Positions 376 to 43,000 are shown, counted from the stretch's first letter. The stretch is DNA of 64,000 bases from a virus (IMGVR_UViG_3300028914_000066:28970-92969), one strand, 5' to 3'. Notes: generated by a model not told the origin, from the letters alone. Translations and numbers: made by a program.

Positions 376-3300
376 ATGGCTAAAAAATATTCAAATAATC
401 CTATTCCTGATAAATATACTGATTGGGGTAAAGATCCTACATATCATAATTATCCTTTTAGTGGTAGATCAGTTCAAAATTATATAAAGGAACAATTTGA
501 CAATAAAGTTGGTTATCTCCATCCAGATGCTAGTAATGAAAATTATTTATTATTTGCAGATGAAGATAACTATAACCTTTATATGTCAGATCCTGTACAA
601 TATGCAGATTTGCTTATAGGTACTGTTCCTTTAGCATCAAATTATGTAGTTGCTATAGATTTAGAAAATACTGAAACTATCAATTATATTAATTATGGTG
701 ATACAGGTAACTATATTCAGGCTTACTTTAAAGTTTTAAATAAAGGTGGTGCTGAAATTAGTGATGAGTTTAAAGTTACAATTACAATTCGTAATGGTTC
801 AGCTGTAACTACACTTCATAGAAATGCAACTTATGGTACATTATTTAGCTTAAATATTGATGAATATTTAACTGAAGGAACTAATGTTGTTACTTTATCA
901 GTAGCAGCAGTTACTTATGGTGTAGGTAGTTCTATATCATTAATGTATCATGCTATTGTTCTTAGAGTATCTGATGATTTAGATTTATCAGAAGTTTATG
1001 GTTCTGAGAATGAAGTTATTGAAGCTGCTGTACATATTGAAGGTACAGGTACTAAAAGAATTGAATGGTTTGTTGATGGAGTTCAACTTCCTTTTGATTC
1101 TCAAACTGATGAAACATCTCAATCTTCTACAACTTTAACAAGATATATTTCTGTATCACAATTAGCTGAAGGTAGACATAATCTTCAATATAGGGCAGTT
1201 GTTAATATTAATAGTGTTAATTTCTATAGTGATACTCAATATAGAGATTTCATTGTTTATAGAGGACAAACTTTAGATACTATTATTGTCAATTCTTTCT
1301 CTTATAGGGGAGTTTCTCTTATTGATCCTACTGATGATCCTATTGATTTGGGTTCAGTAGAGCAATATATGACAAAAGAAATAAAGTATGCTATTTATAA
1401 TCCTAATAATGTAGCAGTAAATTCTCTTGAAATAACTATTGCTGGTAAAACTACTACAGTAAATGCTGATAATTATAATGAATATACTTATGAATTAAAA
1501 GCATTTAGTGCAGGTTCAACAAGTTTATCATTTAGTTTAAATGGTACAACATTGGAATATAATGTAGATGTTGAACAATCAAGTTTAGATTTAGATACAA
1601 TAGGTAATACTGAATTTGAATTTGAAGGTAATTGTAGAGTTAATACATCTATTGATAAACGATTAGAGAATTGGTCTTTCCATGCTTTGAGTGGTAGTAC
1701 TTATGCTGCTTCTATGAGTGGATTTGATTATACTGAAAGAAATGGTTGGACAGGTGAAGGATTAATGATAGGTGCTGGAGCTTCTCTTGCATTTAATTGT
1801 GCGCCTTTAAATTATAATATTGTTCAAAATGGTGGTACATTTGAATTTGAATTTGAAACAAGACGAGTTCTTGATGATGATGAAATAATTTGCACTTTGA
1901 TGCAAAATGGTGTTGGTATTAGAATTACTGCATCTGAAGCTAAGATTGTATCACAACAAGGTGTTGAATTATCTTGTAAATATAAAGCTGAAGAAAGAAA
2001 TAGAATTACATTTGTAATTAATCCTTTAAATGCTGCTGTTAATAAAGGTCTTGTATTTATCTTTATTAATGGTATTCTTTCTGGTGTAAAGAATTATCAA
2101 GTTGGTGATAGTTTTACATCAAATATATATGCTGTATTTGCAGGTAGTGCTGATGCTAATATTGTTCTTTATCAATTAAGATTTTATAGAAGAGCTTTAC
2201 GTCTTGATGAAGTTCTTAATAACTATATTCTTTACAGACCTACTGTTGATGAATTATTAGAAGCTTATGATAAGAATGATATTTATACAGGTGGTTCATT
2301 ATCACTTGATAAACTTTCTGCTCAAACTCCTATTATAATTATAACAGGTAATGTTCAAGAACTTCAAGACTTTACAAAAGCAGATAAAGGAACATATAGA
2401 AAGATGGCTAAGATTGAAGTTATAAATACTGATGATCCTACTAGAAATCTTACTCTTGTTGATGCTAGTATGCGTTGTCAGGGTACATCTTCTATGAACT
2501 ATCCTAAAAAGAATTTCCGTTTCTATACTCAGGCTGATAGTAAAGATGAAACTGTAGCATCTTATACAACTAAGATGTACGATTATGAAGGTACTGAATA
2601 TACAGGTGAAGATAGACTTTATGCTTTCAAACAAGGTGCTCAGCCAGTTAAAACTTGGTGTTTGAAAGCTGATTATGCTGAATCTTCTTCAACACATAAT
2701 ACAGGTACTGCAAGACTTTGGAATAATCTTCTTAAAAATGCAGTTATTCAGAATATAGATCAAAGATATTGTCAAAAAGGAAGTATTCCTTATAATGGTA
2801 CTACTCCTTGTAGAACACAAGCTCAGCAAGCTGCTATTGATAATAACTATGAATATGATGTTCGTACTGCTATTGATGGATTTCCTATTGTACTTTTCTA
2901 TCATCTTAATGAAAATGATCCTCTTATATTCTTAGGAAAATATAATTGGAATAACGATAAATCAACTGAATCAGTATTTGGTTTTAAAGATGTTCCTGGC
3001 TTTAATAATGAACATATGGAATGTTGGGAAGTTGTTAATGGTGACTATCCTGAAAACTTATTTACTGATTTAAGTAATTGGGATACTGATATTCAATATG
3101 AAGGTAAAACCATGAAAGGATGGCAACGTGCTTTTGAAGCTCGTTATCCTGATGATAGTGGTAAACCTTCAGAACAAACTCGTGCAGATCAAGCTCTTAA
3201 AACTTTTGCAACTTGGATTAATGGATTGAAAACTGCTGCTAAAGTTCAAGGAGGTCAGGTAGTTGTAGACGATGTTTCAGTTATGGCTACATTTAGTGAA

Positions 3301-6300
3301 CAAAAATGGCTTCATATGGATGTTTATAAGATGGCTGCTTATTATGTTTATCTTATGCGTCAAGGAGCTGTAGACCAGACTGTTAAAAATGCAATGTTTA
3401 CAACTGAAGATGGTCAGCATTGGTATTATATTCTTTACGATAATGATACTATTAATGGTTTGGATAACAATGGTGCATTAGCATTTGGATATAATATTGA
3501 TAGACAAACTATTGATCCTAGAACAGGTAATAGTTATTGTTATGCTGGTCATGATTCTGTTCTTTGGAATAATCTTGAAGCTGATGCTGATTTTATGGCA
3601 ATTGTTAAAATTGTAGACCAAGCTCTTTATAATGTAGGTCTTACATATGCAGCTGCTATAAATATGTATAATAATGAACAATCTAAGAAGTGGTCTGAAA
3701 GAATACATAATCTTGATTCTCAGTATAAGTATCTTGATCCTTGGCTTAATGATAATAACTCAGTAGGTCTTCCTAAACTTCAAGGTGCTCGTGATACTCA
3801 TCGTCAATGGTGGTTATCTAACAGATTTGCATTATATGATGCAATTAATGTTACAGGTGCTTATAAAGCTAATGTATTCCTTGTACGTGTATCTTCTGTT
3901 ACATTACCTGCTCCTGTAAATGCTTATATAACTCCTGCTAGAACAGGTCAAGTTTATGGTTATGGTAAAGGTGGTGTACCTATAGTTGCTGGTGTAATTG
4001 GAACTGTTGATGTTCCTATTGCTATGCAAATTAGCGATGAACTTTATGTTGGTGCATCATTAGATTTCTATAATGCTGTATTTGCTAAGAAGATTGATAT
4101 TTCTGCTATATCTCAATATCTTACTGAAATTCATCTTGAGGCTATTAATTCAGAAGCTTTTGATTCTTCACTTGAAGAATTGATTTTAGGTACTGAAATT
4201 TCTGAAGTAAATGTTAATGCTTTAACACAATTAACTAATTTAGGTAAAGCTAAATATTTAAAGAAACTTGGTATTTGCAACTTTAATGGTCTTGTAAGTA
4301 TTGATTTATCACAAAATAATTATCTTGAAGAATTAGATGCTCGTGGGTGTGCTAATTTAACTAATATAGTATTTCCTGATGCAGCACCTATTAGTGCATT
4401 ATATTTGCCTGCTAATTTACAACGACTCGCCCTTAAAGAGATAACAACATTACAAACTTTAAGTTTAGTAAATAATGGTGAAACTATTACAAATATTGAT
4501 ATTCGTAATTGTAATATTGCTGGATTTACAGATGCACCTACTAAACTTTTTGCTTGGATGAATGCTAGAGGTGATGTTCAAGGTCAATTAGATGTTTATG
4601 TAGATAATATTAATTGGAATAATATAGATCCTGATGATATTATTGAGTTTGGTCAATATGTTAAATCTAAAGGTTATCTTACATTAAAAGGTAGATGTGT
4701 TCTTTCTAGTTTAACTCTTGAACAAGTTGATAGTTTAAGAGAAGTATTTGGTAATAATTGTTTTGATGCTGATGCTTCACTTAGATTTATTGCTACAGGT
4801 ATATTCTTTACAGGTCCTGATGATATACTTTCTGATGGTCAATATCAATATGCTGTTGTAAATGCTACTGGTGCACAAGGTACTATTACATATTCTATTA
4901 CTCAATCTGCTAGTATTACAGGATTAACTATTAGTAATCAAGGTTTACTTACTGTTCCTGAAGTAACAGGTAGTGATAAAAATATTACAATTCGTGCTAC
5001 TTTTGAGGATGCAACAACAGGTGATATTACTAATGAAACAATGAATATTGTTGTAAGAAAACGTGTATATCCTGCAAATGCTACTATTAATGGTCCTGCT
5101 AGAGTTGAAAGTAGAGAAACATATAATTGGTCTACAACTACAACAGGTATTAATACAAATGATAAAATGTATGCAGAATGGACTTTAACAGGTGATATTA
5201 CTAATTCTGTTAGAATAGCATCTCAAAATTTACAATCTTGCATACTTGAATTATTTGGTAGTCCTATAAATGAAACTGGTACTTTAACATTAACATTAAA
5301 GAAAGTTGCTGATGATAGTACAATTCTAACTACAACTATGAATGTATCAGCTTTTAATAATTCTATTGCATTTACAAAAGAAACAGATCCTTATCTTGTA
5401 GAAGTAATGCATAGTAATTATAATGCTAATGGGGATCTTCTTTGTGCAAGTGCAGATTATATGACTAAAGCAGAATGTAATGCAGTTGTAAATGAAGATT
5501 TATATCAACATTTAACTCCTACACAAGCTAATAGTATATTTTATAACAATACTAATTTTAGAAATTATTGTACAAATTTAGATGCTTTAAAATATTTTAC
5601 TGGACTTACAGAAATACCAGATTATTGTTTTTATGCATGTAATATAATTGAAATAACAATACCAGAAAATATAGTAGTAATAGGCAATAATGCGTTAAAA
5701 TATTATAATACTGTAAATAATGAATCTTCTTATAAATTAAATAAATTAGAATTTATAGATAATATAAAACCTATTACAATAAATGGTTTAAATTTAAGAA
5801 TAAATTCAGATTTAATATTTACAAAACCTATAATTATTACACAATCAGCTGGTTTATGTTTTTGGAATAATAATAGAGATATTTTACGTACTGTAACATT
5901 CAATAAATTAAATATAAATAATGGTTCAGTATGTACTGGTGGTATTGGTAGTAGTGGAAGCTATTGGCTTACTAGTAATATAACATTAAAAGTTTTAGAA
6001 TCAGATTATATAAAACAAGAAAATTATGGTTGTTTTTATGCAAAAGATATAGAAATATATTTTGAATTATCAAATGATAATAATTATAAATATTTTGTTA
6101 ACGACATTTCAAATTTATTTTTTAAAGATACAACAATAATTCCAGATAGGGTTATAGCCAACGTAACTAATTTAGATGTAAATATTTATTGTGATAAGGA
6201 AATAAATTATATAGGAAACTATTATCTTTATGGCAAATTATATTTGCTTAATAATACAAGTGTTCCTCAAACTTGTAATTTAATTAATTCACGTCTTGGA

Positions 6301-7167
6301 GGAAAATGCATTGTGGTTCGTCATGATATGTTATCAGCTTTCCAAAATGCATTTCCTGCTATTGCAGATCATTTTACTGATGAATTTACACCAGAAGGCG
6401 ATCCTGTAGATTTTACAGTTACAGGCGATGATGTTCCTGGACAAGCTATAGGAACTATTCTTCATGTAGCTAAAACTTATAATGGTCATTACGCTGATGG
6501 AACTCAAGGACAAGAAGTAATAGTTGAAGATATGGAACAAGAGGATAACTTCTTTGCTCAAAATGAAGGTAATACACCTATTACAAGAACTTTTAATGTT
6601 ACAATTGATACAATTACAAAAAGTTGTACTATAAATCAAGAAGTAATAGATAATACTTTGAGTGAATTTGAGTATCCAACAGGAAATAATATTAAAGTTA
6701 TTTATGGTACAACATATAAAGATGATATTATAAATCTTTATATAGATAATAAAAAGAAAATTATAAACAGAACTAATTATAATATACAAAATTCTGGTTA
6801 TAATGTATTAATGAAATTAAATTCAAATATAACAAATAGTACAAGTTTATACGGAACTGCAATTAAAAAAGTTAAACTTAAAAATATTAATAATATATAT
6901 AGTTCAATATTTGAGCGATGTTCTAATTTAACTAATGTAGAATTTCCTTCTACTTTAAGTACATTTAAAGGAGATTTATGTAAAAATTGTCCATTAACAG
7001 AATTAATATTTTTAAGTATAACAGCTCCATCTTATTATCAATCTGTAAGTCTTAATACAACAGGTTGGGGTGAAAATGGCATTCTTAAATATCCTCAAGG
7101 TTCTAATTATTCTAATATTACAAGTAGAATTCCTTCAGGTTGGACTACAGAAGAATTAACAATTTAA
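376..7167 (+). CDS. Giant multidomain tail fibre / receptor-binding-type protein (Ig-like, LamG-like, CotH kinase-like and leucine-rich-repeat regions)
   Basis: 2263 aa. LamG-like GGTFEFEF…FIFINGILSG…LYQLRFYRRAL; CotH-like KKNFRF, KADYAESS, DQTVKN, YDNDT; LRRs LEELDARGCANL and BspA-like LKYFTGLTEIPDYCF, FERCSNLTNVEFPSTL. Confidence 0.75.
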   Translation: MAKKYSNNPIPDKYTDWGKDPTYHNYPFSGRSVQNYIKEQFDNKVGYLHPDASNENYLLFADEDNYNLYMSDPVQYADLLIGTVPLASNYVVAIDLENTETINYINYGDTGNYIQAYFKVLNKGGAEISDEFKVTITIRNGSAVTTLHRNATYGTLFSLNIDEYLTEGTNVVTLSVAAVTYGVGSSISLMYHAIVLRVSDDLDLSEVYGSENEVIEAAVHIEGTGTKRIEWFVDGVQLPFDSQTDETSQSSTTLTRYISVSQLAEGRHNLQYRAVVNINSVNFYSDTQYRDFIVYRGQTLDTIIVNSFSYRGVSLIDPTDDPIDLGSVEQYMTKEIKYAIYNPNNVAVNSLEITIAGKTTTVNADNYNEYTYELKAFSAGSTSLSFSLNGTTLEYNVDVEQSSLDLDTIGNTEFEFEGNCRVNTSIDKRLENWSFHALSGSTYAASMSGFDYTERNGWTGEGLMIGAGASLAFNCAPLNYNIVQNGGTFEFEFETRRVLDDDEIICTLMQNGVGIRITASEAKIVSQQGVELSCKYKAEERNRITFVINPLNAAVNKGLVFIFINGILSGVKNYQVGDSFTSNIYAVFAGSADANIVLYQLRFYRRALRLDEVLNNYILYRPTVDELLEAYDKNDIYTGGSLSLDKLSAQTPIIIITGNVQELQDFTKADKGTYRKMAKIEVINTDDPTRNLTLVDASMRCQGTSSMNYPKKNFRFYTQADSKDETVASYTTKMYDYEGTEYTGEDRLYAFKQGAQPVKTWCLKADYAESSSTHNTGTARLWNNLLKNAVIQNIDQRYCQKGSIPYNGTTPCRTQAQQAAIDNNYEYDVRTAIDGFPIVLFYHLNENDPLIFLGKYNWNNDKSTESVFGFKDVPGFNNEHMECWEVVNGDYPENLFTDLSNWDTDIQYEGKTMKGWQRAFEARYPDDSGKPSEQTRADQALKTFATWINGLKTAAKVQGGQVVVDDVSVMATFSEQKWLHMDVYKMAAYYVYLMRQGAVDQTVKNAMFTTEDGQHWYYILYDNDTINGLDNNGALAFGYNIDRQTIDPRTGNSYCYAGHDSVLWNNLEADADFMAIVKIVDQALYNVGLTYAAAINMYNNEQSKKWSERIHNLDSQYKYLDPWLNDNNSVGLPKLQGARDTHRQWWLSNRFALYDAINVTGAYKANVFLVRVSSVTLPAPVNAYITPARTGQVYGYGKGGVPIVAGVIGTVDVPIAMQISDELYVGASLDFYNAVFAKKIDISAISQYLTEIHLEAINSEAFDSSLEELILGTEISEVNVNALTQLTNLGKAKYLKKLGICNFNGLVSIDLSQNNYLEELDARGCANLTNIVFPDAAPISALYLPANLQRLALKEITTLQTLSLVNNGETITNIDIRNCNIAGFTDAPTKLFAWMNARGDVQGQLDVYVDNINWNNIDPDDIIEFGQYVKSKGYLTLKGRCVLSSLTLEQVDSLREVFGNNCFDADASLRFIATGIFFTGPDDILSDGQYQYAVVNATGAQGTITYSITQSASITGLTISNQGLLTVPEVTGSDKNITIRATFEDATTGDITNETMNIVVRKRVYPANATINGPARVESRETYNWSTTTTGINTNDKMYAEWTLTGDITNSVRIASQNLQSCILELFGSPINETGTLTLTLKKVADDSTILTTTMNVSAFNNSIAFTKETDPYLVEVMHSNYNANGDLLCASADYMTKAECNAVVNEDLYQHLTPTQANSIFYNNTNFRNYCTNLDALKYFTGLTEIPDYCFYACNIIEITIPENIVVIGNNALKYYNTVNNESSYKLNKLEFIDNIKPITINGLNLRINSDLIFTKPIIITQSAGLCFWNNNRDILRTVTFNKLNINNGSVCTGGIGSSGSYWLTSNITLKVLESDYIKQENYGCFYAKDIEIYFELSNDNNYKYFVNDISNLFFKDTTIIPDRVIANVTNLDVNIYCDKEINYIGNYYLYGKLYLLNNTSVPQTCNLINSRLGGKCIVVRHDMLSAFQNAFPAIADHFTDEFTPEGDPVDFTVTGDDVPGQAIGTILHVAKTYNGHYADGTQGQEVIVEDMEQEDNFFAQNEGNTPITRTFNVTIDTITKSCTINQEVIDNTLSEFEYPTGNNIKVIYGTTYKDDIINLYIDNKKKIINRTNYNIQNSGYNVLMKLNSNITNSTSLYGTAIKKVKLKNINNIYSSIFERCSNLTNVEFPSTLSTFKGDLCKNCPLTELIFLSITAPSYYQSVSLNTTGWGENGILKYPQGSNYSNITSRIPSGWTTEELTI
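1297..1314 (+). repeat. Dispersed motif copy 1 (G-orientation, degenerate)
   Basis: ttctcttataggggagtt, inside CDS 376..7167. Confidence 0.55.
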
Positions 7168-8028: not shown

Positions 8029-8228
8029 CTGCTAATGAAGAGAAAGAACTACTTAGATTAACTAAAGAAAATAACTTTATGTTAAAACAAATGTATGGTT
8101 ATATTTCTCATCATATAGCAAATATTAATCAAGAGAATACGGATGACTTTATTAGAAATATTCTTGCTAATGTTATTTCTAACTCCCCTTTAAAAGGAAA
8201 TGATAACAATGGATTTAACAATAGATGA
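8025..8228 (+). CDS. Hypothetical protein
   Basis: 67 aa, ATGA-coupled to the previous gene. Confidence 0.65.
   Translation: MTANEEKELLRLTKENNFMLKQMYGYISHHIANINQENTDDFIRNILANVISNSPLKGNDNNGFNNR
8181..8200 (-). repeat. Dispersed motif copy 2 (C-orientation)
   Basis: aactcccctttaaaaggaaa; encodes NSPLKG. Confidence 0.75.
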
Positions 8229-8283
8229 TAATACTAAAAATAAAATAATTAATCGTTATATTAATAAATTAAAACTTAAACGT

Positions 8284-8787
8284 ATGGAACTTAAACACAC
8301 TGTTTCTTTAATGCTTAGTTCTGATTATAAAGAACGTTTTATAGCAGAGTATCTTCAAGTTAAAATTAGATATGAAAAACTTATTGCTATGTGTAATAAG
8401 TGGGATGAAGGTAAACTTGAGTTTACACCTACTTGTCCTAGAAGTCTTTATGCTGACCAACTTGGATATATGCAAGCTTATATGTCAGTTCTTGAAGAAC
8501 GTGCTAAACTTGAAGGTATTGATTTATCTGAAGAAACTTTAGCTCATAGAACAGAGTATGTTCCTAGAGTTAAGGAATTTAGACAACTTGGTGATGAATT
8601 AATTCAATCTGTTAAAGAACTTCAACCTTCTAAAGAAGTTGAATTAAGTATAATTAAATTTCAAGAAGGTGTTATGTGGTTAGGTATGGAACTTAAACGT
8701 ATTAATGAACCTAATCCTTATCCTAATAGCAAAGATGCTAGCACAGGAAACGTTATTGATAAAACAGCTGATGGTTTAAAACTTTAA
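8284..8787 (+). CDS. crAss001_48-like domain fused to an Acb2/Tad1-like hairpin domain (candidate anti-defence sponge)
   Basis: Track ORF 8200..8787, likely start ATG 8284. N-half SSDYKERFIAEY…TPTCP…MQAYMSVLEERA; C-half SKEVELSIIKFQEGVMWLG resembles the Tad1/Acb2 'RExSLAITKLEEAxMWL' helix. Confidence 0.6.
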   Translation: MELKHTVSLMLSSDYKERFIAEYLQVKIRYEKLIAMCNKWDEGKLEFTPTCPRSLYADQLGYMQAYMSVLEERAKLEGIDLSEETLAHRTEYVPRVKEFRQLGDELIQSVKELQPSKEVELSIIKFQEGVMWLGMELKRINEPNPYPNSKDASTGNVIDKTADGLKL

Positions 8788-9114: not shown

Positions 9115-9235
9115 TTCAAGTAAAAGTTCCAATAGTAAATCCAATAGTTCTAGACGACCTCAACCTAAATCTCCTCCTGGTGGTTATAGTGGTAAAAGAA
9201 CTAGGTATGATGAAGGAGGAGAAATTGATTGGTAA
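9101..9235 (+). CDS. Small basic Ser-rich peptide (44 aa, MAKSNSSKSS…KRTRYDEGGEIDW)
   Basis: Hand-translated ATG 9101 to TAA 9235. Overlaps both neighbours and has A/T-ending codons. Missing from the track. Confidence 0.6.
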   Translation: MAKSNSSKSSNSKSNSSRRPQPKSPPGGYSGKRTRYDEGGEIDW

Positions 9236-9599
9236 AGCTCTTTATAAAATAAGTTTGTATCTGCTAGAGAAGATACCAATGGTAACTGCGGTATTGTATC
9301 TAGCAGATACTATTTTATCCTATTTTACAGATAAAAGTAATGCAATTATTTCTCCTATATGTGGAATGTCATTACTTCCTATTATTTTCTTTTATGTTAC
9401 TTCTATAACATTTGGATTTTGTAAATGGCATAGAATGTTTATACATTATATTGTAGTCAATGAAGCATTAAGTTGGTATGATTATTATGTTGGTATTCCA
9501 TTAAATGCAGTTAATTTATTAATGTTAAACTTAATAATAGCAGGAATATTTTTGTTTTTAATAATATATTTCAAGTTTAGAGTATGCGTGAAGGATTAA
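9207..9599 (+). CDS. Hypothetical membrane protein (about four TM helices)
   Basis: Track ORF 9180..9599, likely start ATG 9207/9210. Hydrophobic segments and an FGFCKWHR motif. Confidence 0.7.
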   Translation: MMKEEKLIGKALYKISLYLLEKIPMVTAVLYLADTILSYFTDKSNAIISPICGMSLLPIIFFYVTSITFGFCKWHRMFIHYIVVNEALSWYDYYVGIPLNAVNLLMLNLIIAGIFLFLIIYFKFRVCVKD

Positions 9600-9877
9600 G
9601 AATGTTGTTAGTTAGAGAATTAAGAGAACTAGCTACAAATATAGAACTTGATAGATGTGAGGCAACAGATGAACAAGGTTTAGATGTATTAGATCTTCTT
9701 CGTCATAAACCTATGTATAAAGAACAATCATATGAATATCTTGGATTAGGTAGAAGTAGATTTGATGATTTAGTTCGTGATGGTATTCTACCAAAAGGTA
9801 GAAAAGATAAAGGTGGAAAACTTTATTGGTATAAAGATGAACTAGATAAAGCAATAAGAGATTATAAAGTAAAGTAA
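9584..9877 (+). CDS. Excisionase/AlpA-like helix-turn-helix DNA-binding protein
   Basis: KEQSYEYLGLGRSRFDDLVRDGILPKG…LYWYKDELD is an Xis/AlpA winged-HTH pattern. Confidence 0.75.
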   Translation: MREGLRMLLVRELRELATNIELDRCEATDEQGLDVLDLLRHKPMYKEQSYEYLGLGRSRFDDLVRDGILPKGRKDKGGKLYWYKDELDKAIRDYKVK

Positions 9878-9907
9878 AATTCAGTGCCGTAAATCGGTAG
9901 TGCTTGC

Positions 9908-9949
9908 AGTCGCTAAATAGTTGATATTTAGCGGCTTTCTTTGTTTTGT
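9908..9949 (+). terminator. Intrinsic terminator
   Basis: Stem agtcgctaaata / tatttagcggct followed by ttctttgttttgt. Confidence 0.75.
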
Positions 9950-9958
9950 CGGCATTAT

Positions 9959-9989
9959 TTTGTTTGACCTGATGTGCGTATTACCTTAG
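9959..9989 (+). promoter_or_regulatory. Possible Bacteroidota-type promoter (-33 TTTG, imperfect -7 TACCTTAG)
   Basis: TTTG at 9959-62, 19-bp spacer, TACCTTAG at 9982-89 (consensus TAnnTTTG, one mismatch). Confidence 0.4.
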
Positions 9990-10061
9990 TGCCATAAATC
10001 AATTACGCGCGAAATTGAAATATTAAATTTAATCAACTTTAAAAACTTAAATGAAGAAATT

Positions 10062-10985
10062 ATGGCACAAGATGGTGTATTTATTTATCCAGACGCAGCA
10101 AGACCTGCTACTTCTACTATTGACCCTAATCTTATGTTGGCTCTTAGTAACAATGGTGGTTTTGGTGGTAACAACGCTTGGTATTGGATAATATTCTTAT
10201 GGATGATGTGGCAGAACAATGGTGGTCGTGGTAATTTTAATGACTATGTTGCATCAATGAATGGTAATGAAGGTCGTCAGTATCTTGCAGAAATAATGAA
10301 TGGTAGATTTGATAATATTAATACTTTAGCTCAGATTGTTAATACAGGTGTAGAAACTGTTAAGAATGGTATATTCACTCTTCAGACTTCTATTCAGCAA
10401 GTTGGTGCTCAAGTTGGTATGTCAGGTCTTGAAGTTCAGAATGCTATTGCTCTTGGTAATGCTGGTCTTGCTAAACAATTATGTGAGTGCTGTTGCGAAA
10501 ATAGACTTGCTATTGCTAATCAGACTGCTGCTCTTCAGAGTAGTCTTGCTGCTCACGATGCTAGTGTTCGTTTGCAACTTGCTCAGAATGAAGCTGCTGA
10601 TCAATTAGCTGTATGTCAGCAAACTAATGCTTTATCAACTCAGGCTGATAGAAATGCTAATAGTATTCTTAATGCTATTGCTGGTCAAAATACTCTTATA
10701 ACTAAGGAGTTCTGTGATTTGAAAGAACGTGAACTTCAGAATAAGATTAATACACAAGGTGATATTATTACTCAGTTACGCAATCAGATTAGTAACGATA
10801 AACAAAGTGAAATGTTTAATGCTGCTATAAATGCTCTTAATGATAAGATAACTTTACTTGCAGCTAAACAGCCTAACACTGTTCCTGTTCAATATCCTAA
10901 TCTTGTAGCTGCTAATGCTACACCTTATGTAGGTGGTTATGGATATGGTTATGGAAATGGTTTTGGCGGTGGTATTGTATTATAA
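10062..10985 (+). CDS. Conserved phage protein with a Gly/Trp-rich N-terminal TM segment, CxCCC motif and long coiled coil
   Basis: 307 aa. GGFGGNNAWYWIIFLWMMW; QLCECCCENRLAIANQ; Gly/Tyr-rich tail. Confidence 0.8.
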   Translation: MAQDGVFIYPDAARPATSTIDPNLMLALSNNGGFGGNNAWYWIIFLWMMWQNNGGRGNFNDYVASMNGNEGRQYLAEIMNGRFDNINTLAQIVNTGVETVKNGIFTLQTSIQQVGAQVGMSGLEVQNAIALGNAGLAKQLCECCCENRLAIANQTAALQSSLAAHDASVRLQLAQNEAADQLAVCQQTNALSTQADRNANSILNAIAGQNTLITKEFCDLKERELQNKINTQGDIITQLRNQISNDKQSEMFNAAINALNDKITLLAAKQPNTVPVQYPNLVAANATPYVGGYGYGYGNGFGGGIVL

Positions 10986-11008
10986 TTAACGGATAAGGAG
11001 GTAAAAGT

Positions 11009-11347
11009 ATGAATTGTTGTAATCAAGTTATAGCAACTAATGCAGGTGGTATTCCGTATATTGTATCTACAAATACTGTTATTGGAACAGAAAATATTAA
11101 TATTGCTTTAGGTTTTCGTAGAGTTCAACCAATAGGATATATGTCAATTATTATATCTGATGTTATTCCTGCTGATGCAACTACTACTCTTCCTGTAACT
11201 CTTACTATGAATGATACTACTAGAGCTTTAACATTGCCTAATGGTACTCCGGTAACTGCTGCAGAATTATTAAATGTAAGTAATATACTTATATTTAATG
11301 ATAGAAGTAAAGGCTTATTAACATTAATGTCCCGTACAACTGCTTAA
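11009..11347 (+). CDS. Hypothetical beta-rich protein
   Basis: 112 aa, preceded by AAGGAGGT. Confidence 0.75.
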   Translation: MNCCNQVIATNAGGIPYIVSTNTVIGTENINIALGFRRVQPIGYMSIIISDVIPADATTTLPVTLTMNDTTRALTLPNGTPVTAAELLNVSNILIFNDRSKGLLTLMSRTTA

Positions 11348-11373
11348 TATAATAATTTAAAAAGTTAATAACT

Positions 11374-11874
11374 ATGTTTTCAAATTTAACGCAAGGAAGT
11401 ATTCTTTATGGATATGATGCTAAAGAAACTTTTAAATATTTTACAGCTCCTATTGTTAGTGTAAGTCTACCTAGACTTAAAAATAAACCTAATGGTTTCT
11501 ATCCACTTACAGAAATGGTTGTGGATATAGTTGCAACAGTTAATGGTGAAAGACGTGAGTTCCAACAAGTGCCCAGCAACACAAGTATTGCTGATTTTGG
11601 AGAAAACTCTTTTGTTATTGCTGATAGTAAAGAAGCTCTTAATGCTTTTATAGATTCTCAACTCATGAATGTTGATAACAGACTTAATAATATTGAGAAA
11701 GATAAACATTTAAAAGTTGAATATGAATCTTTACAAAAACAAATTAATCCTAATTTACGGCAATCAGTAAATGATGATGAAGTTAAAGAATTAAGAGATA
11801 AAGTTAATTCAATGGAAGGTTCACTAAAAGAAATACTTTCCTTGCTTAAACCTGGAAATGATAAAAAAGAATAA
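11374..11874 (+). CDS. Hypothetical protein with C-terminal coiled coil
   Basis: 166 aa, operon context. Confidence 0.75.
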   Translation: MFSNLTQGSILYGYDAKETFKYFTAPIVSVSLPRLKNKPNGFYPLTEMVVDIVATVNGERREFQQVPSNTSIADFGENSFVIADSKEALNAFIDSQLMNVDNRLNNIEKDKHLKVEYESLQKQINPNLRQSVNDDEVKELRDKVNSMEGSLKEILSLLKPGNDKKE

Positions 11875-11880
11875 TAAATT

Positions 11881-12096
11881 ATGATGGTAGTTAAATTTCG
11901 TTCTTCTGAAAGTAAAGATACTTTAAAGAAGTTAAAGAAAATGCATAAATTTACTAAAGAACTTATTGAGTGCTTTGAAGATAAAATGCATGACGAAGAT
12001 GATGATGATTATGATGAGGATTATCGTGAAGATGAAGATTGGCGTGATGAAGATCCTCGTATGAGTAAGCGTTATCGTAGAGGTGGTATGCGTTAA
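11881..12096 (+). CDS. Small acidic/basic hypothetical protein
   Basis: 71 aa, D/E-rich tract followed by KRYRRGGMR. Confidence 0.7.
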   Translation: MMVVKFRSSESKDTLKKLKKMHKFTKELIECFEDKMHDEDDDDYDEDYREDEDWRDEDPRMSKRYRRGGMR

Positions 12097-12106
12097 ATTA
12101 CTAATC

Positions 12107-12144
12107 AAGAGCAACGATTTCTAATACTTGATTTCGTTGCTCTT
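12107..12144 (+). terminator. Intergenic hairpin (attenuator or mRNA-stability element)
   Basis: aagagcaacga / tcgttgctctt, 11-bp perfect stem with a weak U-tract. Confidence 0.5.
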
Positions 12145-12159
12145 ATAATTTAAAAAGCT

Positions 12160-12582
12160 ATGAAACGAAGAGAAAATTTTACAGCTTATGAAGTATTACC
12201 TGATGATTTATATATTTATATGAGTCATTATGGACCTCATTTTACTAAAGAACTTTGTGATTATGCAGTAAGTTTAATGTATGCTGATGATGAAAATGGA
12301 AATAAGAAAAATATAACTCCTTATACTAAGGAACAAGTTGAAAATCTTCTTAAATCTTATAATATAAAAGTTAAGTATGCAAAACTTTATGATTGTGTAT
12401 ATGTAGCTAATATGTGTAAATTTGATTATTTAGGAAGTGCTATTCCTAATGAACAATATTTAGCTAAATATATTAAAGATACATTAGATGATTCTGATGG
12501 TGCAGAAGGTCTTATGTTTAATAGATGGATTGCAGATATGAAATGGTTAGGAGAACCTATTGATTGGTCTGAATTTATATGA
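12160..12582 (+). CDS. Conserved Bacteroidota phage helical protein
   Basis: 140 aa with YGPHF…YVANMCKFDY…IDWSEFI. Confidence 0.75.
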   Translation: MKRRENFTAYEVLPDDLYIYMSHYGPHFTKELCDYAVSLMYADDENGNKKNITPYTKEQVENLLKSYNIKVKYAKLYDCVYVANMCKFDYLGSAIPNEQYLAKYIKDTLDDSDGAEGLMFNRWIADMKWLGEPIDWSEFI

Positions 12583-12965
12583 TTAAACAAGTATTTAATG
12601 TAGAACATTATTGGAAGGTTATAATTTACTATAATGTAGATTATAGCCTTTTCAATATTATAGCTAATACTTTGAAAGAAATACAATGTCCTAATTATAT
12701 CATAAATGATATATATTATCAAATGAAAACACAAAGAGCAAAAGCTGTAACAATAAGTAATTGTAAATATAAAACTAGTATTTTGCTTTTTAATAAACAT
12801 TCTGATTATTATGATTATATTAATTCAGCAGTACATGAGGCTGAACATATAAAACAAGCTCTTTTAAAATGTTATAAAGTTAATGATGAAGGAGAAGCAC
12901 CAGCATATACTATAGGGTTCTTAGCATCAAAGATGATAAAGAAAATGATCAATGTAATTTTATAG
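12579..12965 (+). CDS. Putative zincin-like metallopeptidase
   Basis: HExxH (VHEAEH) with a downstream E in EAPAY. Confidence 0.65.
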   Translation: MIKQVFNVEHYWKVIIYYNVDYSLFNIIANTLKEIQCPNYIINDIYYQMKTQRAKAVTISNCKYKTSILLFNKHSDYYDYINSAVHEAEHIKQALLKCYKVNDEGEAPAYTIGFLASKMIKKMINVIL

Positions 12966-13089
12966 CTGTCTATATCTAAATGTTTTATAATAATTTAATT
13001 TTGGCTCTAAACGCATTAATTTTCAGGTAGTTAGATACTTAATTTAAGTTTAAATATGCCGTCAAAGCATATCCCAGCAGGGTTATGGG

Positions 13090-13121
13090 CTTGTTTTTCT
13101 TATTTATATATTATATATTTG
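13090..13121 (+). promoter_or_regulatory. Bacteroidota sigma-type promoter
   Basis: cTTG at 13090-93, 20-bp spacer, TATATTTG at 13114-21. Confidence 0.55.
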
Positions 13122-13188
13122 CAATACATATTATATATAATAATATTATATAATATATAATTAATAATAATATACATAATATAAATAT

Positions 13189-13210
13189 AAGCACCCCTGT
13201 AAGAAAAGAA
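13189..13210 (-). repeat. Dispersed motif copy 4 (C-orientation)
   Basis: aagcacccctgtaagaaaagaa, intergenic. Confidence 0.8.
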
Positions 13211-13346
13211 TATACTATTCTGGGATATGGTTAAACAGATTTTCTTTCATACGCACTTATTCATATTGTGTAATTTATCTTAATAATTAGGTTAGTGATT
13301 TTGGTTAATAAACATAAAGTAGTTAGAGATAATAACTTTAATGTTG

Positions 13347-37000: not shown

Positions 37001-40000
37001 CTGAAGGTTTACAAGGTAAAGACTTGAAAGCTTTTAGTGTTAATCGCGATGGTTTTAATTCTATTTGTAATGTAGCTAAACCTACTTTAAATAGACCTAT
37101 AAAAGTAGTTTATACATTAAATGAAGATCAATATAAACTTGCTGTAAAAACATTCGGTAAAGATAACGTTGAAGATTTAGATGGAGAAGGACATTATGAA
37201 GTAACTCATACTACATGGGGATGGACTAATACATTTAGAAATATTAAAGGAGATTTATTACTTCCTTATTCTTCTGAAACTACAGCTCATATGCTTGATG
37301 CTGTAAAAATTGGTCATATTCCAAATGTAAACACTGAAACATTTAAAGTTTATAAGACATTTGTTGATATAGGTTCAGATTATAGTACTGCATTAGTATT
37401 TATTATGCAACCTGCTATTGGCAGATTTATAGATAAGTATAATCGTAAAAAGTCTATTTATTCTGAGGATTTAACTGATCCTATGAAGCAAACTTATATT
37501 GATATTGCAAAACAATTAGGTGTTGAAACTAAACAGAAAAATAAAAAAGAAATTAAACAAGGTATAGCTGCAGTCCTTGCTAATGAAATAGAAACTATAT
37601 ATAATATTTTAGATTACGATATACTAAAAGAAAGGTTTTATAATAACTCCCCCGTAAGCGAAGAGAGTGCTAAACACTTAGCTATTGATTATTTAATTCT
37701 TGATAAGTATGAAGAACTTTCTGATATAGCTTCTGAAGCTGAAAATTATTCTATGGTTCTTAGACCAGATAAATTTGGTGCTAAAGAAAGTATTTGGAAA
37801 ACAAAGAAAGTATTTAAAGATATATATAACATTCTTGATAAAGAGAAACATTTGTTTACTGTTAATGATAAAAATCTTTTAGAAGCTATCTATCCTGGAA
37901 TTGATAACGGTTTTAATAGTTATCTTCAAGATACAAAAGATAATGAAAGTGTATATAAACCTTTACAATATTTCTTAAAATATGGTACAGCTACTTCTAT
38001 AGCTATAAATAAACTTTTATTTCCTACTGAGTCTGTAGAATTTGAGAATTTTGTAGAATCATTATCAGATTATCTTACTGTTAGAAGTCTTCCTGAAGAT
38101 GTTTATAAGAGTTTTACAAATTATATTCTTCAAGGAATTTATAATAATATTAAGAGTATTAGTTTTCCTGTTGATTATATTAAAAATAAAGGTTTTAAGC
38201 CTAGAGATGTAAAATCAACAGAAGATAGACTTAAAGTTCAAGAAGCTGAAAAACAAAGAATATTTGGTTATCAACATATATTTAATACTAGAAATAATCC
38301 TTCTAATTTTAAAGTAGTTGATATTGCTAGACCAACACAAGAAGAAATTAATAAATTTTCTGCTTTTTCACCTGCTGAAAAAGTAAAATGGGTTAAAGAT
38401 AATTTTGCAGATGGTTTAATATGTAAATATTTAGAACCTAGAACTTATATTAATTCTGTTTATGGTGAAAAATATCAAGCTTGTCAAACAATTACCTTTA
38501 ATGAAGATAATATCGGAAGTGAAGTAGTTTATGATGAATTTGATAAAACTTTCAATAATACTAATCCTTTCTTAGCTATGACTGCTTTAGATTTAATAAA
38601 GTATGCATTTGTTGTAGAAGGATATCAAACTAGAAAACATTCTATCAATAGAGTTATTAAAAATAGTGTTCTTATTAATGATAATAATAATTATGGTTTG
38701 AACATTATTGAAGATTTAAAGAATGAATTTAATAAATTTGTAATAAATTTAAAAGATAATGAAACTAGAAATTTAATTAGAGAAGATTTTATTAGAAGTC
38801 ATACAGAATTAGAAAGTGTACCTAAACTTAGACTTAATAAAGATAATTATAAAGACTTTATTAAAAATAATAATGTTCAGAATACAGGTGTAATTAAATT
38901 ATCTTTAGAACAAGCTGAAGTTATAAATGAAGATACACAAAATAATAAAGAAGATGAACAATATCAAAACTTCTTAAATAAACTTAAACCTTATATTATA
39001 ATTCAAGGATATGAAGGAGGTAAGTTAAAGAGTATTTTATATAAAACTGTAAATGAATATAATAATGTTATTTATCTTTATCCTTTATCTAAACTTCAAA
39101 ATAACGAAACAGGTGATATCAGTTGGTATGATGAAAATAATAAATTAGATGATAATGTATATCAACCTCAAAGTTATTATTTAGAAGTTATAGAAAAAGA
39201 TTATAATGGAGATAGTAATTTACCTAAAACACAAAGAAATTTAACTACTTTTGATAATAATGCTGTAATTCTTGATAGTAAAGAAGAAGAATTAGGAGAT
39301 ATTAAAAAATTAAAGAATAGTATAGCTAATAACGAAAATAACTATTTTGTTTATAAAGCTAACGATATTGATTATCTTGATAAGAAACTTCCTTATGTAA
39401 AAGAAAAATATATACCTTTAAAAGTAAATAATAAAGACTATAGAGTTGAAAGATTTATTATGTCTAAAGGTTTATTTGACTTTACTACTAAAGAAGGTTT
39501 AAGAAAAGTATATAATTCTGCTAAACGTAAATATGATTATAGTCAAAAGAATGATAGCAATCCTATAAGCAAAGAAGATGCTTTAAGAAAAACTTTAAAT
39601 CAATATGTTGCATATAGTCGTTTAGCTAAAGAATTACAAGATGTAATATTTGATAAGATTAATCTGTGGATTAATACTCATGCTAGCAATAATTTTAATA
39701 ATTTTGTTGCACCTAATAAATTATTTGGAAATTTATTTATTGTTCAAAAAGTTGAAGTTAAACAAGCAGATGTTGAAGAATCCTTAACTTATGCAACTAA
39801 ACAAAATATTAAGTATGCTAGAACAAGTAGAAATCCTTTAGCAGAAAAATTTAGTAAAGGAATTAAACAAGCAGGTGTAAATATTCATGAAAATGATTTA
39901 AACTCTTCAGATGATGAAAAAGTTAAGAACACTATAGGTAATCATCTTGAGGATATAGCATCTCTTAATAGAATATTTGTTAAGAATGAAGTTAATGATA

Positions 40001-43000
40001 TTGAAGATAGACTTAATAATTTTACAGTTATTAATGGAGATTGGAAGAAAATTAATGATCCTGAAGTAATGAAAGCTCTTAAAGATGATCCTGAGCTTCA
40101 TACTAAATATTTAACTTTACTTCTTGATGCACATAGATTAATTCGTGCTTATACAAATGATACTTATGATTTCCGTAAAATTACAGGAAATAATAATACT
40201 TTTGTAAAAGAAAATATAGCACAAATTAATGAAGACATTGCTAAACTTAATTCTTCAGACCTTCTTAATGAAGCTGAAAAATCTTATGTTGAAGAATATC
40301 TTACTAAATTAAGTCATAATCCTGCTATTAGAGAAGGAGTTACTAGTTTATTAGATAGTTATCATGCAACTACTTGGTTTACTTCTCAAATAGCTGATTT
40401 TCAGGATACTCATAATCCTGCTTTACAAGTTATTCAAACAACTGTAATGCAGAATATTAGAGGTGCTGATTTACAAGCTGATCATGAAATTGAAATTTTC
40501 CATAAAACTTGGCAAGATATAATTAATAGAGCTAAAGCCGCTGGTAGACCTATAAATATGAAACATATTATAGATGAAACTGGTAGAAGAATTAGAGATT
40601 ATAATTCTGAATTTGAAGCTGATTTAAAAATGTTTGATAAAACTACTCAAGCTTTACAGTTAGAGTATGAAAAATGGGATGAAATTTATAGTAAAAATCC
40701 TACTCCTGAAAATAAATTAGCTAGATATAAAGCTCATAAGAATTATCTTGATAAAGAATTAGAGTTTGATAAATGGAAACTTAAGAATATTAATCAAGCA
40801 ATGAAAGATGAATATATTCAAAAAGAAATTCAACTTAATGAATATATGCTTGAAAATTATTCTGACATATTTGTTGAATATGAGATTCTTAGAGCAGAAA
40901 GAAATAAATTATATAATATAGTTAATGTAAATGTTCCTGATGAAAATAGTGTCAGATTAGAACAAGTAGAAAGAGCTATTAATGATTTAACTAACTATTG
41001 GGATAGAGCTGCAAGACAAGAAAAAGAAGAAATTCCTTTTGAAACTCAACCTAGAAAAGGTAATGATATTAACACTCATGAGTATAATATTGAATTAGTT
41101 TCAAGTGCTAATGCTCTTAGAGGTTATATATCAAATCTTAAAGAATGGAAAGAAACTGTTTATACTAGAGAAGAAAAAGAGAATTTTAGAGAAAATCTTG
41201 ATAAAAATCTTCAAATTATAGCTGAAGCTGAAAGCCCACAACAAGCTACTGATGGTCATTGGTATATTCCTTCTCAAAAAGTATTAATGGATAGTAATGA
41301 AAATTATCGTAATGCTAAACTTTGGTTATATAGAAATGCTACATTCTATTTTGGTAGTCTTTACGATAATAAAGAATATACTAAAAAAGACTTTATAGCT
41401 AAACTTAATGAGGTTTATGATAAAGGTCTTAAAATGGACTTTAGAGAGCAACTTGAAGCTGATCCTAATATATCTGAAGAAAATAAACAAAAACTTATAG
41501 ATGAATATAATTTAAGAATTAGAGCTGCTATATCATATTTTAGAAATTATGATATTAAAGGTTTTGACGTAACTCCTCCTAAATTCTATAAAGAACTTGC
41601 TAAGAAAAGAAACGCTTATGACGAATATGGAGTTATTGATGGTCGTAAGTTTACTGAAGCTGACATTGATAATATTAAAGATAGTGAATTAAGAAGATTA
41701 CAAAGAGAAAAGAGTAGTACACTTTCAGAAAAAAGTATTATACATTTTAATCCTAAAGCGGAAGATAATACTGTTTATAATAAAGATTTTTATGCAGGTA
41801 TGACATTACCTGGCGCAGTAAATCAAGATTATGAAAGAGTTGTAAAAGCTATAAATAATTTCTTAATTCATGGTATTAATGAAGAAGGAATATTTGATGC
41901 TTCTATATTAAGTCTTGAAGATCTTAAAGGTGTTCTTTCAATTCTTCAAACATATTTCGGATATGATCCTGTAGAACAAGAGTTTGATTATAGAAAAGCT
42001 GTTAAAAAATATCTTGATGATGATATAATTGAACATTTAAATCTTACAGAAGATGAACTTGATGAAAGAAGAGAACAAATTAAGAAATTTATTGAGGATA
42101 ATGTAGATTTTGAAAGAAATCAAGATGAATTTGAAGCAGCTAAAGCTAGAATATCAGATAGAAGTGAAGAATATAAAAGACTTTGGAATAAAGTATTTGC
42201 TGAATACGATGAAGATAATCATGATTATAATTTAGCAAGTCATTTATTCTTTGGTTATGCTAAACCTAAAGAAAGTGTAAAAGATCAATTTGTTGATAAA
42301 GAAAAGACTTCTGCTTTAAGAATATTAGATAAAGCTTTTGATATTCAGTATACTAAATATTATTATGATGCTAGAAGAGAAGCTTCAAATAAAGGTACAA
42401 AATATTTTAGAGAATGGTTTGAAAAGAATCATATTTATAACACTTACAAACATAGATTTGAACCGTTAGCAATATGGACTACAACTAAAACTATTACTGA
42501 TGTTCTTCCTGGTGAATGGCGACCTACTTATAATCAAGAAAATAGTACTATTTCAGAAAAAGTTGTTAATCCTAACTATAAGAAAGATTTAAGTAGAGAA
42601 TCTAATTTTAAAACTAAAGAGCAAAATAAGAAAATAAGAAATAATTATAAAGAGCCTTATGTTAATAATCCTCCTATAGTATTTAATGATATTGATGTAT
42701 TTACTAAGAAAAAAGATTTCTTTGATAAATCAAATCTTATTCCTTCTGTAAATTATTTTACAACTGAAGAAAAATATTATAATAAGGGTTTTGAACTAAC
42801 TCCTGAAGAACAAGAACTTAAGGATTATATTGATAAGACTCTTACCTATTATTCTAGAAATAAAAAATCTAATCGTTATATTAATGATGGTTGGATGCCT
42901 GCTAGAGCTAAAGCTAGTAGTAAATCTTTAACTGATCCTTCATTTTGGCTTAATGAATTAATTAAAAGTCTTGGATTTATTACAGGTTATCAAGGTAATG

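Follow-up and report, generated by a model that had tools for sequence, protein, structure and literature searches.

A conserved six-gene operon of crAss-like and other gut phages that may encode a virion fibre with an exchangeable tip

Analysis of a 64,000-nucleotide stretch of viral DNA (IMGVR_UViG_3300028914_000066, positions 28970-92969; hereafter the window) led to a cassette of six genes located at 10062-12965, which corresponds to 39031-41934 of the genome. The window represents the last 64 kb of a 92,969-bp crAss-like phage contig from bovine gut, its relatives are Crassvirales and its GC content is ~27%. Positions given below are those of the window unless the genome is named, and the genes and signals of the cassette, as well as the gene pair upstream of it, are all on the + strand. 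The cassette encodes, in this order, a long helical protein (gene 1), a small beta-rich protein (gene 2), a protein with a beta-barrel and three helices (gene 3), an acidic peptide (gene 4), a DUF7841 protein (gene 5) and a predicted zincin metallopeptidase (gene 6). It is one conserved, separately transcribed operon with the marks of late, high-level expression. Judging from its sequences, we tentatively propose that it encodes a dispensable late virion fibre with an exchangeable tip, which is a plausible reading of the evidence laid out here. An earlier note on this DNA had described the cassette, together with the upstream pair, as a self-contained and mobile module; translation of the open reading frames (ORFs) placed all eight of them where that note had put them.

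Profile hidden Markov models of eight window proteins were run on six-frame ORFs of fetched loci. The order gene 1-gene 2-gene 3-(acidic peptide)-DUF7841-(zincin) is shared by 33 IMG/VR loci found via gene 1, by ~30 of the 37 genome-collection loci found independently via DUF7841 and by 71 further IMG/VR loci. Across the three locus sets (~140 fetched loci, with identities as low as 25-30%) no rearrangement of this order was observed. About half of the cassettes have the zincin gene, and a minority lack gene 2. Searching of phage records with tblastn returned 28 with a match to the 307-aa product of gene 1 and 28 with a match to DUF7841. Phages cr272_1 and cr4_1 of the Suoliviridae, cr116_1 of the Steigviridae and the non-crAss Bacteroides phage C3_41T2LP carry the same gene string in the same order. 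The earlier suggestion that such clusters recur in unrelated gut phages is thus borne out for several crAss families and a non-crAss Bacteroides phage, and the gene-neighbourhood check that had been suggested finds co-occurrence well beyond close relatives. The neighbours of the cassette vary and include lysis genes (homologues of crAss001 gp27, gp28 and endolysin), gp31-like, scaffold and capsid genes, terminase, tail, and replication or recombination genes. As supposed, then, the cassette behaves as a portable unit at differing genome positions. Gene 1 has no match in any cultured crAss-like phage of the 'phages' collection, which is probably why the cassette has so far escaped characterization. 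The cassette is also absent from crAss001, the one cultured crAss-like phage in which DUF7841 was looked for directly.

The cassette has its own conserved terminator, promoter and internal hairpin, in agreement with the self-contained module proposed earlier. An intrinsic-terminator hairpin is located at 9908-9946, and the terminator noted upstream of gene 1 is confirmed by its 12-bp stem at 9908-9936, with a GTTGA loop and a T-run. In an alignment of 19 loci 95.2% of the cells are paired, with compensatory changes in 7 of the 12 pairs; none of 500 shuffles reached this level (0/500) and slid controls gave 30-54%. It is the only copy of this hairpin in the 93-kb genome, and it accompanies the six genes also at loci lacking the upstream pair of a membrane-protein gene and a helix-turn-helix (HTH) gene. 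These data show a conserved structure that would shield the cassette from transcription entering from upstream. In the outer stem the pairs covary freely. The inner stem is kept in sequence (TAACT/AGTTA, in the window TAAAT/ATTTA, in general TAAnT/AnTTA) across phages with only 40-80% protein identity, as is the loop TGAT. The hairpin may also serve as a palindrome for protein binding or as a regulated terminator, and the HTH protein may be what binds the sequence-conserved palindrome within it.

Downstream of the hairpin, a promoter-like site of the Bacteroidota type lies at 9959-9989, composed of TTTG (9959-9962), a 19-nt spacer and TACCTTAG (9982-9989), the latter one mismatch from TAnnTTTG. 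In relatives an exact TAnnTTTG is found 57-90 nt before the gene-1 ATG. Of 103 distinct loci, 76 (74%) have this motif upstream of gene 1, and it precedes 0-3% of the inner genes. A sigma-70 scan returned 37 sites against 34.4 expected, hence no enrichment, with no + strand site before 10062, a scan that is uninformative in AT-rich DNA. The promoter-like site of the earlier note consequently stands as a Bacteroidota -33/-7 element and not as one of sigma-70 type, and its conservation shows a single host-type promoter that is predicted to drive the operon. Concerning translation, the Shine-Dalgarno sequence noted for the gene at 11009 is present as AAGGAGGT at 10995-11002, 6 nt before the gene-2 ATG. 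Among 99 distinct loci, 74 (75%) have a similar site before gene 2; the figure is 0-8% for most of the other genes and 23% for that of the acidic peptide. Such a conserved, strong ribosome site is expected to boost gene 2. The internal hairpin was also recovered, between genes 4 and 5 (12107-12144), with an 11-bp GC-rich stem (minimum free energy -25.2 kcal/mol, z -3.6). Of 25 related loci, most have a strong hairpin at this point, and the stems are unrelated in sequence. The internal hairpin is likely an attenuator or partial terminator lowering the expression of the last two genes, reduced read-through into the DUF7841 and zincin genes being deduced from its structure.

Three features place the cassette in the late class: its position in the structural arm of the genome, in-frame TAG codons in recoded relatives, as in their endolysin gene, and a third-codon-position GC content (GC3) near that of the capsid gene. 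It is flanked by a giant fibre gene on one side and, on the other, by a block opening with a 'virion structural protein' (phrog_9863). The fibre-type gene at 376-7167 encodes 2,263 aa and giant ORFs extend over 15.6-45 kb. In the TAG-recoded relatives L001 (cr272_1), L004 (cr4_1), L024 and L026, in-frame TAG codons occur in cassette genes, the HTH gene and the endolysin gene, and the stops are TAA or TGA, a late-gene pattern known from some crAss lineages; according to a review, recoding is concentrated in late genes (PMC10136315). The GC3 of gene 1 is 0.17, compared with 0.21 for the capsid gene and ~0.04-0.13 for most genes, so that the high-expression-like codons previously ascribed to the gene at 10062 are weakly apparent. 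Runs of DNA containing window sequence come from bovine and sheep gut, and five metatranscriptome runs contain 5-10% of the sampled words, from which reads no claim on expression is drawn.

Gene 1 (10062-10985, 307 aa) belongs to phrog_16490 (PHROG match 1.4e-23) and has more than 6,000 relatives, with no Pfam domain among the matches listed. It begins with a conserved VFxFPD...IDPNLL motif, followed by a hydrophobic segment flanked by Gly and Asn, short helices, a long helix at residues 134-268 that begins at a CECCC cluster, and a Gly/Tyr-rich tail ending in GGGIVL. Low-complexity Gly/Asn/aromatic sequence is found at both ends and the rod is Q/N-rich. In an alignment of 42 sequences C143-C145 are near-invariant, and the hydrophobic core, a QTN motif and the QPxT before the tail are also kept. 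AlphaFold2 (AF2) modeled residues 134-268 as a single uninterrupted helix of 135 residues with a predicted local distance difference test (pLDDT) of 67-88, the remainder being low. The hydrophobic core comprises 12 aromatic-rich residues (11-19 in the 42 homologues, median 13, starting after 38 residues), its flanks consist of 53-62% Gly plus Asn with a mean of 0.2 and 0.6 Lys plus Arg, and a 19-residue Kyte-Doolittle window stays below 1.6. Consequently, of the transmembrane (TM), CxCCC and coiled-coil protein described earlier, the CECCC cluster and the long helix hold, but a TM segment is doubtful given the 12-residue core and the almost uncharged flanks. The 'membrane-anchored filament' is not supported either, as it rests on a hydrophobic segment of 12-13 residues unlike a classical anchor.

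Longer fused forms of gene 1 were searched for and none was found, and an apparent fusion of genes 1 and 2 in L027 and L028 was ruled out by a TAA between the two ORFs. Apart from these, the IMG/VR locus 3300045995_000620 (L038:5144-7273) encodes a 709-aa helical protein with DRNGxExR-type repeats, in which the identical 10-mer AKQLCECCCE is found close to the C-terminus and precedes an acidic/Arg-rich tail. The segment with the Cys cluster is accordingly not confined to the 300-aa gene-1 family. In addition, P0121 and P0127 (282 aa; 13 contigs, longest 95 kb) join 130-230 N-terminal residues of the gene-1 family straight to DUF7841. They represent natural deletions within the cassette, on phage contigs that are otherwise full-length; such forms were not found in IMG/VR.

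Gene 2 (11009-11347, 112 aa, phrog_31654, PHROG match 8.5e-7) encodes a small beta-rich protein that starts MNCCNQVIATNAGG, translation confirming the MNCC start noted before. The slot is hypervariable, with at least three types in close relatives and 265 clusters at 50% identity among relatives at E<=1e-3. No Pfam or PDB sequence relative was detected with shallow or deep alignments, even with a 101-sequence profile (chance matches only). A kinship with exosporium proteins of the BclA/ExsF type was considered and found no support at sequence level among the 101 diverse relatives. The slot-2 protein of cr116_1 is not detectably related to gene 2. No gene-2 type was seen to carry a signal peptide when the sequences were read without a predictor.

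Gene 1 can be classed by its last 10-20 residues, and these tail classes correspond to the type of gene 2. Specifically, a GG[IV][IV][LF] tail is paired with the MxCC..NAGGIPY type of gene 2 in 27/27 loci, and aromatic tails (FWN, YWG, FFN) are paired with gene-2 types that have an aromatic N-terminus. Where gene 2 is missing, the Gly/aromatic tail is missing too and gene 3 follows directly (4/4 loci). At least 12 changes of tail class are required on a tree built from the rod core alone, and the closest relative of the window (88% identity, support 97) carries another tail and gene-2 type. Tail and gene 2 switched together in 5/5 independent pairs (sign test p = 0.06, the lowest value that five pairs can give). 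In every event seen the tail was part of the exchanged segment, and tail and gene 2 are lost together, which suggests that the gene-1 tail pairs physically with its putative gene-2 partner.

Gene 3 (11374-11874, 166 aa, phrog_28898, PHROG match 1.2e-16) is predicted to form an SH3/Tudor-like beta-barrel (residues 1-84) followed by three helices, with a mean AF2 pLDDT of 82. Foldseek returned nothing below E 0.09 in PDB, and in BFVD only uncharacterised crAss and virome proteins. Gene 4 (11881-12096) encodes a 71-aa acidic peptide with 22 acidic and 18 basic residues and an Arg-rich end, RYRRGGMR; it has a weak Phage_TAC_3 match (E 0.002) below the cut-off. Gene 5 (12160-12582, 140 aa, phrog_38431) is helical and matches DUF7841 (PF25223) over profile positions 4-113 of 114 (E 1e-29, 103.5 bits against a 25.2-bit cut-off), with a conserved Asp-rich IDDxDxxxG...FNRW. 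The DUF7841 profile gave only chance matches to PDB sequences, and a literature search found no paper mentioning the family. Gene 6 (12579-12965, 128 aa) overlaps gene 5 by 4 nt and encodes the predicted minimal zincin metallopeptidase; the HExxH noted in the last product is HEAEH at residues 86-90, accompanied by Glu106, and H86, E87, H90 and E106 are invariant in 20 zincin sequences. It aligns with a C3_41T2LP protein annotated by its depositors as a PolyVal metallopeptidase (hhalign 98.5%). Against Pfam MPTase-PolyVal (PF18818) the window protein has no match and 2/20 relatives match below threshold (best E 0.054), DUF6782 is matched below threshold by 3/20 members, and the zincin profile gave only chance matches to PDB sequences. 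Naturally fused proteins exist of DUF7841 with the zincin (P0122, 15 members) and of the acidic/Arg-rich peptide with DUF7841 (P0123, cr4_1 and PD691P3), which suggests that the three products are coupled. Concerning Parabacteroides phage PD691P3, its comparison with genes 1 and 3 by hhalign (54%, around the CCC motif, and 13.5%) is only suggestive. In cr116_1 the terminal zincin is present and DUF7841 absent, and a second small HExxH protein (L003:5423-5770, 115 aa, HECLH) is encoded between the HTH gene and gene 1. A search of the ESM Atlas yielded no leads either. Overall, the families of the cassette are known only as PHROGs without an assigned function and DUF7841, and no cassette protein has a characterised relative.

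In the fibre that we propose, gene 1 would form a parallel oligomeric coiled-coil rod of ~20 nm, stapled by the CCC cluster, with its Gly/aromatic N-terminal region as a sticky attachment part. Its last 10-20 residues would dock the gene-2 beta protein as a distal cap, and tail and cap would be exchanged between phages as a single unit. The gene-3 protein, with its beta-barrel and helices, would join the rod, and the acidic/Arg-rich peptide, DUF7841 and the zincin might together act as assembly or maturation factors. The internal hairpin would then divide the operon into four abundant building genes before it and DUF7841 and the zincin behind it. The appendage could be a fibre on the head or tail, with an exchangeable tip for binding to variable structures of host or gut surfaces, and it may replace the unrelated head fibres gp21 and gp29 of cultured crassviruses. 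We favor this reading because of the late class of the cassette, its place in the structural arm, the high-expression marks, the Cys-stapled coiled coil and the lack of obvious export signals; an N-terminal signal peptide or lipobox was not evident in any cassette protein when translations were read by eye, without a predictor. It is further favored by the hyperdiverse cap swapped with its docking tail, by dispensability and by non-overlap with gp29 homologues. The cassette appears dispensable because it is absent from crAss001 and because the internal-deletion forms occur on 13 contigs. As for gp29, 35 records carry homologues of this head fibre and 28 carry gene-1 homologues, with zero overlap; both groups include Steigviridae Asinivirinae, and both genes are placed in the lysis-scaffold neighbourhood. 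The crAss001 structure study reports gp21 and gp29 to be missing from other crassviruses, which may use uncharacterised analogues (PMC10172136).

Several points weigh against a fibre. The AF2 model of gene 1 has a mean pLDDT of 60. Tail and gene 2 are adjacent on the DNA, so their co-switching could partly reflect single recombination events, and the mutual exclusion of gp29 and the cassette rests on few independent lineages. No fold or sequence link ties the cassette proteins to a known fibre, adhesin or chaperone, and no virion proteome or structure exists for any cassette-bearing phage. Conservation of the gene-1 N-terminal region extends from crAss-like phages to a Bacteroides phage outside this group; a virion-docking domain would be expected to vary with the type of capsid or tail, and alternatively the region may bind a common target, e.g., a membrane. 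Additionally, the Gly-flanked hydrophobic segment, the zincin and DUF7841 would have no evident use in a fibre.

The main alternative is a late membrane or envelope complex with gene 1 anchored in the cytoplasmic membrane, where the rod and its partners tune lysis in an antiholin- or spanin-like manner or remodel the envelope; we consider it possible but rather unlikely. A hydrophobic segment with Gly-rich linkers in every homologue, crAss and non-crAss, would fit a target common to all hosts, but its median 13-residue core and nearly uncharged Gly/Asn flanks are unlike a classical bacterial TM anchor. Genomic context speaks for such a complex in relatives, many of which have the cassette directly adjoining homologues of crAss001 gp27, gp28 (holin) and endolysin. 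In Parabacteroides and B. fragilis siphophages DUF7841 directly precedes a holin-like gene (a predicted membrane protein), which is followed by an annotated or M15-type endolysin, and the 3-4-TM protein encoded at 9207 often accompanies the cassette. In the source genome, however, the endolysin-like gene with its membrane and signal-peptide neighbours lies 27 kb off, before the terminase. The lysis control suggested earlier is therefore weakened in the source phage. A 20-nm coiled coil bearing Cys recalls i-spanins of the Rz type. Compartments are hard to reconcile with this picture: the partners have no obvious signal peptide or lipobox (as read by eye), so a periplasmic rod could not meet them, and the Cys clusters and Cys-rich tails are ill-suited to a cytoplasmic rod. 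Hundreds of gene-2 types are also hard to account for in a lysis accessory. For superinfection exclusion, another role suggested earlier, nothing points specifically to it.

A set of packaged and ejected or counter-defence proteins, with the acidic peptide as a nucleic-acid mimic and the zincin as a protease of the ArdC/PolyVal type, is improbable. The PolyVal metallopeptidase class is found in injected polyvalent proteins, and the zincin has a relative annotated as a metallopeptidase of the PolyVal type; against this, the zincin is missing from about half of the cassettes and hence not core. The gene-4 peptide is strongly acidic with an Arg-rich tail, the neighbour at 8200-8787 adds a crAss001_48 match and a weak, below-cut-off Acb2/Tad1 match, and late expression would suit packaged proteins. 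Searches with PADLOC and NCBIfam gave nothing meaningful, the matches to LmuB (2.7e-4) and mad1 (5.7e-3) being chance-level coiled-coil or HTH matches, and neither the rod nor gene 3 has a link to a known anti-defence fold. The hypervariability of gene 2 could mirror an arms race, but the co-switching of rod tail and gene 2 would be left unexplained. Finally, a non-virion intracellular scaffold, in which the Gly/Asn/aromatic ends of gene 1 and its Q/N-rich rod self-associate into a mesh or filament organising late assembly or replication sites, would suit the low-complexity sequence at both ends of gene 1, the strong expression signals and the electron-light areas of infected cells that suggest some scaffolding according to a Crassvirales review (PMC10136315), but it is very improbable, since the cassette is dispensable, gene 1 is unmatched in the cultured crAss-like phages of the 'phages' collection, an exchangeable hyperdiverse partner is not expected and no fold evidence speaks for it.

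Upstream of the cassette, a 130-aa multi-pass membrane protein is encoded at 9207-9599, with hydrophobic stretches at residues 44-72 and 94-129 that would make 3-4 TM helices; no family was found for it in Pfam, PHROG or PADLOC. The next gene (9584-9877, 97 aa) shares 16 nt with it, so the overlap noted between a 4-TM protein and an HTH gene holds, and encodes a predicted small DNA-binding protein with an N-terminal helical part and a C-terminal HTH_17 of the Xis/AlpA type (residues 51-92). The window protein itself matches HTH_17 (PF12728) below the 27-bit cut-off (E 1.8e-4, 22.2 bits), but 12 of 14 family members match it, with a best value of 4.3e-8, so that the Xis-like HTH of the earlier note is real at family level. 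Its profile gave only chance matches to PDB sequences, and the cr116_1 homologue is annotated 'excisionase, terminase small subunit'. Homologues of the membrane protein lie directly upstream of the HTH gene in 17 of the 33 IMG/VR loci found via gene 1, and elsewhere in others. The pair directly precedes the cassette in about half of these 33 loci, is missing within 7 kb upstream in six IMG/VR loci, is downstream of the cassette in others, and is undetected beside it in many of the later-fetched loci. The pair is its own transcription unit and a frequent but separable neighbour. A role as 'sensor, regulator' of the operon, as once proposed, finds no backing in this arrangement, in which the pair is a separate unit, absent or downstream in some loci, and the hairpin stays with the six genes without it.

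Other neighbouring features were also identified. Just upstream of the pair, the ORF at 8200-8787 has a Pfam match to crAss001_48 (7.2e-20) and the weak Acb2/Tad1 hairpin match mentioned above (5.1e-4, below cut-off). After the zincin gene, positions 12966-13340 comprise 375 bp of non-coding DNA with a nearly pure A/T tract around 13100-13190. Outside the window, a 200-aa protein at genome 11370-11972 matches PHROG 33083 'endolysin' (5.8e-18) and no Pfam family. It opens the probable lysis cassette of the source phage (genome 11370-12541), in which a 93-aa membrane protein and then a 126-aa signal-peptide protein follow, and the terminase is located just downstream at genome 12541-14826.

Crassvirales are among the most abundant gut viruses, and the gene-1 family has thousands of relatives in metagenomes. 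If the cassette encodes a fibre with an exchangeable tip, it would offer a handle on the adhesion and host-range diversity of uncultured crassviruses and would identify the as yet uncharacterised counterparts of the crAss001 head fibres. Should it prove to be an envelope or lysis device, it would add a new component to the little-known lysis machinery of Bacteroidota phages. In both cases the operon represents a compact and testable regulatory design that combines an insulating hairpin and a host promoter with a single boosted ribosome site and an attenuator inside the operon. A larger claim is that the cassette is a new modular surface fibre, with a Cys-stapled alpha-helical rod, a non-covalently docked exchangeable tip and a DUF7841/zincin maturation pair, and that it would be a main determinant of adhesion and host range for the uncultured crAss-like majority in gut and rumen; on present sequences we regard this as doubtful.

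Comparison with known systems gives likenesses and differences in each case. Spanins and other lysis accessories (lambda Rz/Rz1; T4 RI/RIII) share with the cassette an N-terminal hydrophobic segment, a Cys-bearing coiled coil of periplasm-spanning length and a partner matched to the C-terminus, and in relatives the cassette often adjoins holin and endolysin genes. Unlike in spanins, the gene-1 segment appears too short and has nearly uncharged flanks, gene 2 has no lipoprotein signal (as read by eye), and the cassette of the window is not in a lysis cassette. With the zincins of the MPTase-PolyVal/ArdC type (PF18818) gene 6 shares the HExxH with a downstream Glu, small size and phage context; it differs from them in falling below Pfam thresholds, in being a free-standing protein of 128 aa, and in its site after DUF7841, to which it is sometimes fused.

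Concerning head fibres, phi29 gp8.5 and T4 fibritin are further analogues. Those of crAss001 are a gp21 trimer and a gp29 dimer (PMC10172136). They are accessory surface fibres, as is proposed for the cassette, and are not conserved across Crassvirales, and gp29 lies in the same lysis-scaffold neighbourhood. In contrast, gp21 and gp29 are each encoded by one small gene (97 and 122 aa), whereas the cassette is a six-gene operon with its own promoter, and tblastn with gp21 and gp29 matches only crAss001 among the loci and no cassette locus.

The exchange modules of tail-fibre tips, functionally the closest of the known systems, are represented by T4 gp37-gp38, lambda Stf-Tfa and Mu S-U. Neither sequence nor fold relates the cassette to Tfa, to gp38 or to another fibre family, and genes 1 and 2 gave no Pfam or PDB sequence match; its location in the virion is predicted only, its body is an alpha-helical coiled coil with CCC, and it carries four further conserved genes, including DUF7841 and the zincin. 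The likeness lies in a long fibrous body that is conserved, with the extreme C-terminus and a small diverse downstream gene replaced together. The cassette follows this pattern in its conserved body, its variable C-terminus and its co-varying downstream gene.

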